Below are positions 1,115 to 5,206 of a stretch of 7,739 bases of DNA, one piece after another. Numbering within the stretch: the stretch's first letter is position 1; every line of letters begins with the position of its first letter. Under the pieces are notes generated by a model. That model did no database searches. It was not told the DNA's origin and saw only the letters and a list, made by a program, of their open reading frames with translations. This DNA comes from a virus (lineage: Duplodnaviria > Heunggongvirae > Uroviricota > Caudoviricetes), in the IMG/VR virus record IMGVR_UViG_2695420487_000009, one strand, 5' to 3'. Position numbers and translations under genes: made by a program.

Positions 1115-1831
1115 TTAAATTCTGGTCCTTACAATATCAACCTGAAGATTCTTATCTTGTGCTGATTGATAAATGACAAACCTTTTACTACCTGCATTGA
1201 AAGAAGTAGACAAAACCAGACAATTATCATAACGAGCAAGAACATAATACCAACCATCATTATAATTAATCATTTCATATTCTTTCTTAAACTGTGGTTT
1301 GTAATATCCTGTCAGAAATGAAAAAAGCCAGAAATATGCCACAAAAGCAATCATCACAATCTCAAAAAAATGTTTTTTTATAAATGGCTTATCATAGAAG
1401 CATGATACCGATAAAAATCGCCCATAAGATCTTATCGAAATTGTAACCGCCAGCGCAATCGCTGCTGACAGTAGCAAAAGAGGTACCTGAATCTTCTGTC
1501 TCAATATAGAAAACTCAATAATTGCCGGCACAAACAATAATTCCACAGCAAAATAAAGGCGAAATACATTTAGCTCTTGCATAGAATGTTTTCTTTTCAC
1601 TGCGAAAAAGAATACAACACCAATACCCCAACCGATAAGAAATATAGCAATGACGATAACTGCAAAAAATAAACTTCTGGCAACATCATCAACACCTGCA
1701 CCTACAATCCACCATGGGAAGCCGTAGTAAAAAGAAGTACCCCATCCATAGAAATAAGCACTCCCCCATCCAAGGCATCCCATGTAGGCAATAAAAAGTG
1801 AAGAACTCCTGAGCAGCGCACCATCCTTCAT
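1115..1831 (-). CDS. Polytopic inner-membrane protein of unknown function (about 5 predicted TM helices plus a ~50-aa C-terminal soluble tail); AT-rich moron downstream of Q
   Basis: Open frame 1115..1873 on the minus strand (252 codons). Hydrophobic runs include SLFIAYMGCLGWGSAYFYGWGTSFYYGFPWWIVGAG, SLFFAVIVIAIFLIGWGIGVVFFFAV, LYFAVELLFVPAIIEFSIL, VPLLLLSAAIALAVTISI and FFEIVMIAFVAYFWLFSFLTGYY. I favour the third in-frame ATG (1831, MKDGALLRSSS...) because it is preceded by a G-rich SD-like GGGGTGG, and the first ATG (1873) sits inside a candidate -10 element; 1873 and 1858 remain possible starts. Composition is clearly more AT-rich than the flanking Q and esterase genes. Confidence 0.6.
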   Translation of the reverse strand: MKDGALLRSSSLFIAYMGCLGWGSAYFYGWGTSFYYGFPWWIVGAGVDDVARSLFFAVIVIAIFLIGWGIGVVFFFAVKRKHSMQELNVFRLYFAVELLFVPAIIEFSILRQKIQVPLLLLSAAIALAVTISIRSYGRFLSVSCFYDKPFIKKHFFEIVMIAFVAYFWLFSFLTGYYKPQFKKEYEMINYNDGWYYVLARYDNCLVLSTSFNAGSKRFVIYQSAQDKNLQVDIVRTRI

Positions 1832-2010
1832 AACCACCCCAATACAAGATGGTAACATTGGCTTACAACTCATAACAAAAGCAATTCAATGCCGTCAAGA
1901 GGTTACAGGCTAAAAAAACTCTATTACATTGCAGTCAGCATGTTTACTACACAAATACAATTCAGAGCATAAAAACTACTCGGCGGCAGGTTATTGAGCT
2001 CATCAATGAC

Positions 2011-3579: not shown

Positions 3580-4178
3580 GCGGCCTCACTTCTGCTATTT
3601 CGCAGGTCTTTGAGTTTCTGCTGATACTCCGCCTTAATGGCCCTGCACTCTTCGACAGTCCAGCGATGGCGGTTATGGTTTGATTCGATTTCGTCTACTG
3701 CTTCCTGCCCGATGCGGTTAATCAGTTCGACGCGATACGGAACGAGATTTCCGCTTTTATGTTGGTTGCACACCACGCATTGCTTGTGAATATTGCGTTC
3801 ATCAAATCGGAGTTGAGGCGCCGCAGCAGTTGTCCGGTAATGCCCGGCATCCCACTGAGCAGACGTGAGCGTTCCGCACGAGATACATGGTAAGTCGCGA
3901 TCTCTTTCTCTGATGAAGGCGTTTACGGCTTGTTGGGCTTGTTTAATCCAGTAACTGCGGGGCTTTAAGGCGAGTTTTCGAATCTTCAGTTTATCTTTCT
4001 GTTTCTGCTCCTCTCGTCGTCGTTTCTTCTCTGCTGCTTTTTCCGCTTTTTCGCGTTCTTTGCTTCGTCGTTCGAGTGCTATCTTGGTTCCACAAATCTC
4101 ATTACACCAATATTGATTTTGATATTTTGGTATAAACCATTCATTGCAACATTTACATTTCCTTCGATAGATTCGCAT
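3576..4178 (-). CDS. ninG: NinG/Rap-family recombination-promoting protein with a divergent N-terminal ~30 residues
   Basis: From the ATG at 4178 (strong SD AAGGAG 5 nt upstream) the 200-aa product is [104 protein letters not shown]...[70 protein letters not shown]. From GTKIALE onward it matches lambda NinG as I recall it; the first ~30 residues are divergent and encoded by AT-rich codons. The ORF-track start at 4238 lies inside the upstream endonuclease gene and is rejected. Confidence 0.85.
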
Positions 4179-4719
4179 AAGTGCTCCTTTCGTTGCCGGA
4201 AAAATCACCGTAATACTTATCTCGGGCTTCTTCAGCAACTAGTACCGCTAACTCCAGATCATCAAAGCATCCGAAGTGTTTACTCTTGCCATGGAATCCT
4301 AGCCTAACATTCCATTTTTTCTGTCGTTTGTGCCAAGTAACCCCTCTGCAACCTGATTTGCTATTCTTTCGGATCCTTATATTTCTTGAATTTTCTATTG
4401 GCAGGCATTCTCTTAAATTTTCTGGCCTATTGTCGGTCCTAATTCCATTAACGTGGTCAATTTGACCAGCAGGCCAACGATTATGAGTTATGTAAAAAAC
4501 TAAGACGTGAGTTTTATATCTACGCCCATCTATCATGATCATTGAATAACCGTTGGAATCAAAAGTTCCAGCAACACTATTTAATGCTATCCTTCCCTGA
4601 GTGGGAACTTTCCATCTAAATACCCCGGTAGATTTATCGAAACTTAGTAACTCAAATATCCTTTTAACAGTTAAATCTTCTCTTTTACGGTTACATCGTC
4701 TTCGCGCTGGTTTAGCCAT
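4153..4719 (-). CDS. HNH homing endonuclease with C-terminal AP2-type DNA-binding domain, translated from the original ninG start codon (first 9 residues MAKPARRRC are ninG-derived)
   Basis: Product [188 protein letters not shown]. The block [27 protein letters not shown] is an HNH_3-type catalytic motif, and [49 protein letters not shown] is an AP2-like domain; this pairing is typical of free-standing phage homing endonucleases. The region is visibly AT-rich relative to the flanking nin genes. The upstream GTG at 4800 is an alternative but less likely start. Confidence 0.8.
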
Positions 4720-4828
4720 CGCCTTCTTCCTCCGTAATGGTTTTCTGAATTTGGCCACCTGAACAGAGCTCACCAAAGCTATGGATGTCGGTATTTCCAC
4801 AATACCAAGATGGCGAAAATAACTGCAT
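4712..4828 (-). CDS. ninF: NinF-like small cysteine-containing protein (38 aa)
   Basis: Minus-strand frame from ATG 4828: [38 protein letters not shown], ending in a TAA that overlaps the ninG-derived ATG. Termini resemble lambda NinF (M.SPS... and ...EEEDDG) as I recall it, and the position immediately 5' of ninG fits. It falls below the ORF-track length cut-off; short length makes this moderate confidence. Confidence 0.5.
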   Translation of the reverse strand: MQLFSPSWYCGNTDIHSFGELCSGGQIQKTITEEEGDG

Positions 4829-4918
4829 GATAAGCCTCAGGGAAAAGGGAAGACACTACCCCCGATAATTCAGAAACAAATCGAAATACATGAACTAAAG
4901 AAAAAACCACAACAAACA

Positions 4919-4972
4919 GAAATAGAAATAGAAATAGAAATAGAAATAGAAATAGAAATAGAAATAGAAATA
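4919..4972. repeat. Perfect tandem hexanucleotide repeat (GAAATA)x9
   Basis: Direct reading: nine uninterrupted GAAATA units, 54 bp, in the intergenic region between the minus-strand nin genes and the divergent plus-strand 617-codon gene. Confidence 0.95.
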
Positions 4973-5158
4973 TTAAAACAGACCACCACATTCCTGATGT
5001 CATACTCACTAAACAATTTTTCGACAACATGGTAGCTCATAGAACGTTATCGTGTAGACACCCTCTGCTACGTATTCGGTGTTCAGTGCAATATCTACAA
5101 ATACTGGAAAAATCTAAAATCGAGGCAAGTTTTTGGTGATAACTATAGTTAGACTATA

Positions 5159-5187
5159 TTGACGACCTGATGTGCTGTATGTAATAA
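5159..5187 (+). promoter_or_regulatory. Candidate sigma70 promoter for the 617-codon gene (TTGACG, 17-nt spacer, TAATAA)
   Basis: TTGACG at 5159-5164, a 17-nt spacer, then TAATAA at 5182-5187 with a TG dinucleotide immediately upstream, about 20-75 nt before the candidate start codons. Sequence-only prediction in AT-rich DNA, where such matches are common. Confidence 0.3.
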
Positions 5188-5206
5188 CTAACAAAAAATA
5201 TTTTCC

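Follow-up and report, generated by a model that had tools for sequence, protein, structure and literature searches.

The hexanucleotide typing marker VNTR-9 sits in a dead IS911-like element within a lambdoid prophage module

In this study, we analysed a stretch of 7,739 nucleotides from a tailed-phage record (Caudoviricetes; IMG/VR IMGVR_UViG_2695420487_000009), hereafter the window. On its minus strand the genes follow the order of lambda: ninE, which is cut off by the right end, then a fragment of ninF, a gene for an HNH endonuclease, ninG, ninH, ninI and Q (2110-2733). We take this nin-to-Q direction to be that of the pR delayed-early operon, as in established lambda biology. ninF is split by a 2.8-kb insertion, the left end of which is a dead IS911-like element containing a perfect hexanucleotide microsatellite. 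The main features are the following.

4153-4719, minus strand: gene for a free-standing HNH endonuclease of 188 aa, flanked by the ninF remnant and ninG (Pfam HNH_3, PHROG 99, RefSeq annotation)
4712-4733, minus strand: 3' remnant of ninF, its last 7 codons and stop (sequence comparison)
4734-5125, plus strand: decayed IS3-family (IS911-like) remnant (blastn, alignments, BLASTP; right boundary approximate, 5112-5125)
4919-4972, no strand: (GAAATA)x9 perfect hexanucleotide microsatellite, the repeat array of VNTR-9/TR1/Vhec4/O157-9 (sequence, Tandem Repeats Finder, shuffles, published unit AAATAG; PMC2246123)
5288-7060, plus strand: AT-rich cargo gene, 590 aa, TTG start, against the early-operon orientation (PGAP, PHROG 9230, Escherichia albertii comparison)
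7104-7138, no strand: hairpin with an 11-bp stem (GTATGCGAC.../...GTCGCATAC), candidate terminator (44 nt past the cargo stop; -19.7 kcal/mol, z = -4.6)
7519-7567, minus strand: 5' part of the split ninF (NRSYEQESVERA...), codon 4 being a stop; bounds the insertion on the right (sequence comparison)

The initial annotation had placed ninF about 90 bp from the repeat, a distance that is right for the open reading frame seen there; yet this 38-codon frame (4712-4828, minus strand) is chimeric, being ninF only at 4712-4733 and antisense to the IS remnant over the rest, and its 38-aa product gave no match in NCBIfam or PHROGs. The first 20 nt of the neighbouring HNH gene match the start of phage Sf6 ninG, as would be expected for an insertion of the homing-endonuclease type. 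The HNH protein also shows a weak AP2-like match at its C-terminus, and the 5' part of the gene holds an imperfect 20-bp tandem duplication (4661-4701; two copies, 80% matches by Tandem Repeats Finder, TRF). Other prophages display either ninF-HNH-ninG or ninF-ninG without the HNH gene. At the opposite end of the insertion, the 458 bp from the cargo stop to the 5' ninF remnant (7061-7518) contain small open reading frames and the strong hairpin, and no IS right end was found there.

The module is found in prophages of E. coli O26, O111, O103 and O145, in O157 Stx1 phages and in E. albertii. Over window positions 4063-7633, E. coli O111:H- 11128 (locus L001) departs from the window by 5 SNPs and a 1-nt deletion at 6182. 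The mosaic boundaries are sharp, at about 4062 and at 7633: between 2000 and 4062 the window has diverged by 2-3% from O111 11128, where ninH is absent, and homology to Stx1 phages, lambda and O111 11128 all stops at 7633. Further left, a frame of 57% GC runs off the window end (1 to about 620, minus strand), in a region overlapping phage BLAST records with a gene annotated as "SASA family carbohydrate esterase"; presumably it resembles the prophage esterase nanS-p. Downstream of Q, 1115-1873 (minus strand) encodes a 252-aa multi-pass membrane protein (PHROG 1521, unknown function), the gene for which is annotated as frameshifted in O111 11128. An Rfam scan at gathering thresholds and a tRNA scan of the window found nothing.

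The AT-rich plus-strand frame, as opened, spans 5207-7060 and had been described as a 617-codon gene some 230 bp from the repeat. The distance (235 bp) is right for that frame, but the gene itself is likely one of 590 codons that begins 315 bp after the array. Its start is most likely the TTG at 5288, to judge from the AGGAGG at 5278-5283; PGAP and PHROG 9230 use this same start (590 codons), the ATGs upstream of it are not conserved in E. albertii, and in phage SH2026Stx1 a 1-nt insertion between those ATGs and the TTG puts them out of frame. The cargo protein had no Pfam or NCBIfam match, and its PHROGs matches were only to families of unknown function; a profile search of its alignment against PDB sequences returned chance-level matches only (E ~0.2), and the AlphaFold2 model built from a 14-sequence alignment (mean pLDDT 41.7) was not good enough for a search by fold. 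The only species in which homologues turned up were E. coli, E. albertii, Salmonella enterica and Providencia alcalifaciens, with an E. albertii paralogue in a small island next to nleF and the Salmonella homologue in the cdd-sanA island. Given a Ser-rich N-terminus with a repeated LTLNDFLD motif and hydrophobic helices in the middle, the protein is a possible candidate for a type III effector. In O111:H- 11128, the 1-nt deletion at window 6182 frameshifts the cargo gene into two annotated open reading frames; O111:H8 strains, judged from spans and annotation, have the same 1-nt-shorter span and split gene calls.

The array comprises nine perfect GAAATA units (54 bp, 83% A+T), with the G at 4919 and units in the AAATAG phase to 4972, bounded by CCACAACAAA(C/T)AG on the left and TTAAAACAG on the right. 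TRF reports 4914-4972 (period 6, 9.8 copies, 98% matches, score 111), the surplus over nine units being an imperfect AAACAG at 4914-4919; sequence and TRF alike confirm the perfect nine-unit hexanucleotide of the initial annotation. That such an array is rare by chance also holds: in 500 shuffled sequences the longest period-6 self-match run averaged 6.3 and never exceeded 11, whereas the window has one of 49.

The array is the published EHEC typing marker VNTR-9, alias TR1, Vhec4 and O157-9, already known and in use since the 2000s. We take these names to stem from Noller et al. (TR1), Lindstedt et al. (Vhec4) and Keys et al. (O157-9). The suggestion that the locus might correspond to a published MLVA locus was borne out, by matches to forward primers and by the published synonymy of VNTR-9 with Vhec4, TR1 and O157-9 (PMC3321953, PMC3768571). 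The TR1 primers and the repeat unit AAATAG are given in Table 2 of PMC2246123, and the PulseNet forward primer of VNTR-9 in Table A1 of PMC3321953 and in PMC8461963. The corresponding sites in the window, together with the right flank shared with O157:H7, are these.

4704-4730, plus strand: PulseNet VNTR-9 forward primer site, exact match (primer from PMC3321953 Table A1, PMC8461963)
4822-4841, plus strand: TR1 forward primer site, exact match (primer from PMC2246123 Table 2)
4973-4986, no strand: 14 bp right of the repeat, still common to O157:H7 Sakai (alignment; the Sakai IS30 is inserted after 4986)

Alignment of window 4700-4986 to the Sakai Sp17 locus (4101-4387) gives 99.3% identity over 287 nt, taking in the left flank, the repeat and 14 bp beyond. 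Thus the window shares with VNTR-9 of O157:H7 Sp17 (EDL933 Z3935-Z3936) the unit AAATAG/GAAATA, the left flank with both forward sites, the 14-bp right flank and the allele range. The two differ in the first unit, AAACAG in the window and AAATAG at the O157:H7 locus, and in what follows on the right, the IS911-like remnant and then the cargo gene here but IS30 in O157:H7. The reverse primers of TR1 and VNTR-9 have no match in the window, with up to 3 mismatches allowed; both map in Sakai downstream of the same repeat, at the expected distance, within IS30. Repeat unit, forward primers, flank orthology and polymorphism by whole units therefore all identify the locus, and the one attribute of VNTR-9 wanting here, a reverse-primer product, depends on a site defined by the assay. 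Other hexanucleotide loci of O157 (O157-3, -10, -17, -19, -25 and -37) likewise gain and lose whole units of 6 bp, at rates that increase with the number of copies (PMC3777172). Several of them lie inside annotated open reading frames (PMC3321953 Table 1), whereas VNTR-9 in the window lies in a prophage IS remnant and so moves between strains with the prophage module. Searches of the published literature on Z3935, on the cargo protein accession and on O157-9 in O26 returned nothing useful.

Copy number varies widely among relatives. A 701-bp probe matched 997 of 5426 complete E. coli genomes, in 245 of them over its full length, and its spans in cargo-type genomes, 689-785 bp long, differ by multiples of 6 bp, equivalent to 7-18 and 23 units; spans of a Sakai probe imply 5, 7, 9, 10 and 16 units in Sakai-type genomes. 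The overall range among complete genomes is 5-23 units, most of these numbers being derived from the lengths of BLAST spans, with seven arrays on the E. coli side and two from E. albertii read as sequence. The former have 7, 9, 9, 10, 13, 17 and 23 units, six distinct alleles that differ by whole units only; the flanks are identical among the cargo-type sequences read, and Sakai has the same left flank and 14 bp on the right. In the two E. albertii prophages, with flanks about 7% diverged, there are 7 and 12 units. These values agree with the published record for VNTR-9, which lists 6-23 repeats in 15 alleles with a diversity of 0.90 (PMC3321953), and in serial passage single-unit insertions arose at about 4e-5 per generation per strain (PMC3777172). 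From the whole-unit changes and these passage experiments we infer slipped-strand slippage as the mechanism. The initial annotation's view of a hypervariable VNTR prone to change in copy number is upheld; the number is by no means identical across related strains, which would have counted against it. The module is also carried on Stx1 phages, so that some genomes have more than one copy, with up to four places matching the 701-bp probe, and this matters for MLVA in silico. A Logan short-read contig (locus L020, position 1-30) begins inside the microsatellite, the array thus breaking short-read assemblies.

The sequence that surrounds the array points to its source. Sensitive blastn of 4720-5290 retrieved IS911 of phages Sf6, SfII and SEN22 (66-73% identity, E 1e-21), as well as IS3-family copies in 2396 plasmid records; in the alignment, IS911 orfA and the beginning of its orfB run collinear with window ~4773-5112, and BLASTP of the translated frame against IS911 OrfA, in which the (EI)n array stands out as an insertion, gave 47% identity (E 2e-22). 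The terminal repeat is preserved on the left.

4745-4768, plus strand: left inverted-repeat core of the IS, matching Sf6 IS911 at 24/24 nt (alignment)

An IS tip of 11-12 nt, from 4734, begins exactly where ninF homology stops (4733/4734). Besides the left inverted repeat, the remnant retains an orfA that carries in-frame stops and has ~105-120 nt deleted internally, the first ~30 codons of orfB, and a decayed version of the A6G frameshift motif (TTAAAACAG, against TTAAAAAAG in IS911). The deletion takes in the orfA start, and the remaining frame has stops; the conceptual orfA translation fell below significance in Pfam owing to the loss of its N-terminal HTH part. On the right, no inverted repeat was detected, an 8/16 nt resemblance at ~7500-7520 being judged chance. 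When compared with IS911, including the K-12 copy IS911A interrupted by IS30A, the element shares the left-repeat core, OrfA homology at 47% and the start of orfB; yet its DNA is only 66-73% identical to any sampled IS, the orfA start is lost and orfB is cut after ~30 codons. With a terminal inverted repeat on the left only and no functional orfA/orfB with an A6G site, the element is, as far as its sequence tells, a remnant and not a functional member of the IS911 group. At the position of the array, IS911 reads ATT GAA ATG GAG AAT GAA ATA TTA AAA AAG (IEMENEILKK), ending in the A6G frameshift motif, and the 54-bp microsatellite occupies the place where IS911 has GAAATGGAGAATGAAATA. The microsatellite is an expansion of a cryptic three-unit hexamer periodicity, GAAATG-GAGAAT-GAAATA, in IS911 orfA.

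The right side of the locus has a different history in O157:H7. In Sakai Sp17, a partial IS30 begins 14 bp after the array and so creates a break of homology there. The Sakai insertion site (4387/4388) is homologous to the nucleotide at which IS30A is inserted in IS911A of K-12 (L014 ~1235; window 4986/4987), a structure described in PMC9333248. The junctions read ...GGCTAC|TGTAGATTC in K-12 IS911A and ...GACCAC|TGTAGATTC in the O157:H7 Sp17 remnant, the two targets being only ~70% identical to each other. Insertion of IS30 at homologous sites suggests either a hot spot next to the IS911 frameshift region or exchange between IS30 copies. For typing, the consequence is straightforward: both reverse primers lie in IS30, which the window lacks, so that the window would type as a null allele. 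Reverse-primer sites in an IS30 confined to the O157:H7 Sp17 context are one candidate explanation of the frequent null alleles at VNTR-9, reported at 31.7% (PMC3321953). We found no mention of this account in the VNTR-9 literature examined, and regard it as a small addition to a known marker. By the same account, the prophages of O26, O111, O103, O145 and E. albertii should become typable with a reverse primer sited within 4990-5110.

Altogether, we consider it very probable that the array is a selectively neutral, slippage-prone microsatellite that is the published locus VNTR-9. In the proposed course of events, an IS911-like element would have inserted into a lambdoid ninF and then decayed. 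Its dead orfA would already have had a cryptic 6-nt period in the stretch GAAATG-GAGAAT-GAAATA (IEMENEI, just 5' of the A6G site), where point changes may have created a few perfect units; slipped-strand mispairing at replication would then add and remove whole 6-bp units. The array now travels with the prophage module of HNH endonuclease gene, IS remnant and 590-aa cargo gene; in O157:H7 Sp17 an IS30 landed 14 bp to its right and the cargo was lost. The perfect array kept in E. coli and E. albertii modules that are ~7% diverged could reflect high turnover or retention by selection.

The initial annotation proposed that copy number could tune promoter geometry or regulator binding. The array would in that case be a regulatory contingency repeat, whose copy number alters the spacing or phasing between an element and a promoter, or binding of the H-NS type, and so tunes the divergent 590-aa gene. 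In favour of this, the AT-rich, horizontally acquired gene has the array on its upstream side and is divergent from it, the E. albertii module has kept the array, and variable expression would be plausible biology for a gene whose homologues were found only in Escherichia, Salmonella and Providencia. A sigma-70 consensus scan of 4650-5350, on both strands, found no site, the scan being a crude one. H-NS-silenced AT-rich genes often have poor promoters. The probable control region lies in a conserved block.

5137-5193, plus strand: 57-nt block, 100% identical in the modules of E. coli and E. albertii (beginning 165 bp past the array)

The IS remnant around the array is 90-92% identical between E. 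coli and E. albertii and the leader past 5193 only 65%. Within the block, a perfect 6-3-6 palindrome (TATAGT-TAG-ACTATA, 5144-5158) abuts TTGACG (5159-5164), with TAATAA 17 nt further. The block is the best candidate for the promoter/operator of the cargo gene; since it alone is perfectly conserved, the likely control region lies 165 bp from the array, the end of which is 187 bp upstream of the only candidate -35. The minus-strand genes, for their part, are in the pR early operon and so need no local promoter. Helical phase is not kept when 6-bp units are gained or lost, and every whole number of copies from 7 to 18 is represented, which speaks against any helical-phase constraint. Furthermore, the array belongs to the IS remnant and not to the cargo. 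It occurs only together with the complete IS-remnant module, and no GAAATA-type repeat was found upstream of the remoter homologues of the cargo, namely the paralogue in E. albertii, the homologue in Salmonella and one of 58% identity. It also varies where no intact cargo is left to tune, persisting and varying in O157:H7 with the cargo deleted, and having 9 units in three O111:H8 strains and 14 in strain 8E, where the cargo is probably frameshifted. The array is thus neither within a recognisable promoter nor associated with the gene across its homologues, and tuning of the cargo by copy number appears unlikely. A particular form of it, in which VNTR-9 acts as a rheostat whose length sets H-NS-like occupancy or DNA looping upstream of 5137-5193 and so varies cargo expression, is slightly less probable again; if true, the tuned gene would be that of an uncharacterised 590-aa protein which might be a secreted effector.

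Repeats of this kind do act as promoter contingency loci in other pathogens, for instance TAAA upstream of Neisseria nadA, TA between the -35 and -10 of Haemophilus hifA/hifB, and 7-bp repeats upstream of hmw1A/hmw2A. The present array is like these in being a perfect short-unit intergenic array upstream of a horizontally acquired gene of a pathogen, and in mutating by whole units at roughly 1e-5 to 1e-4 per generation. Unlike them, it lies 165-187 bp from the promoter candidate, has its origin in an IS pseudogene, does not accompany the gene family and outlives the gene. The likeness is one of form only, and we infer from the sequence comparisons that the repeat is most likely neutral.

Three further readings assign the array other roles. 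The initial annotation had seen in it a candidate recombination junction, and indeed BLAST alignments of O157:H7 end at or just after the array (query_to 355-387) and short-read contigs end inside it (L020), as if the repeat itself were a substrate of recombination, or the mosaic junction, in the exchange of prophage modules. Where alignments stop inside the array, differences in copy number explain it. Alignment at base level puts the breakpoints elsewhere, at 4733/4734 between ninF and the IS, at ~5112-5125 between the IS and the cargo, and after 4986 for IS30; the IS30 end is intact and follows 14 bp of shared right flank, and the module boundaries against O111 11128 fall at ~4062 and 7633. 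The array as the mosaic junction itself was rejected on these alignments, and its service as a recombination substrate must be held very unlikely. What stands of the earlier suggestion is the neighbourhood: the array lies inside the IS911-like remnant at the left edge of the 2.8-kb insertion in ninF.

A small protein encoded through the array, as (IS)n or (FL)n from the minus strand or as (EI)n from the plus strand, and changing its length in frame, deserves still less credence. Three minus-strand and two plus-strand frames are open through the repeat, frames exist at 4870-5040 and 4779-5030, and the literature places the locus "inside ORF Z3935/Z3936" (PMC3321953). RefSeq/PGAP annotates an (IS)n "hypothetical protein" at L015 321-575 and L017 321-515 (window 4870-5040, minus strand), but only in the long alleles, of 13 and 23 units, and none at 7 or 9 units, as befits a spurious gene call that depends on length. 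Moreover, the IS30 of O157:H7 removes the start of the frame, a 1-nt indel in E. albertii shifts the same ATG into a different repeat frame, and the frame through the repeat has no Pfam match; on the plus strand, (EI)n is read in the frame of the dead orfA, which has stops and lacks a start. Open reading frame, frame and start are thus not conserved across relatives, as they would be in an in-frame coding repeat.

Judged by the order and orientation of the genes, the array is part of the early transcript, where, as (UAUUUC)n, it could load Rho and set a polarity on HNH-ninG-ninH-ninI-Q that depends on copy number. Rho prefers unstructured, C-containing, G-poor untranslated RNA, and the transcribed array is free of G, with UC every 6 nt, within ~2.8 kb of untranslated RNA. 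The argument is purely inferential, and it is met by the many other loading sites along the 2.8-kb untranslated stretch and by the lack of support from covariation or an Rfam family. In lambdoid phages, N-modified polymerase reads through Rho-dependent terminators, which also weighs against such polarity. We judge an RNA element of this kind to be extremely improbable.

Overall, a neutral VNTR-9 that slips within a dead insertion sequence best fits the locus. The derivation of VNTR-9 from an IS911-like element may be new, no mention of it having been found in the VNTR-9 literature examined. The marker has long been used by public-health laboratories and the biological value of the finding is small, while its practical value is modest but real. 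The locus offers a clean natural case of a microsatellite born from a cryptic 6-nt coding periodicity after the death of the gene.
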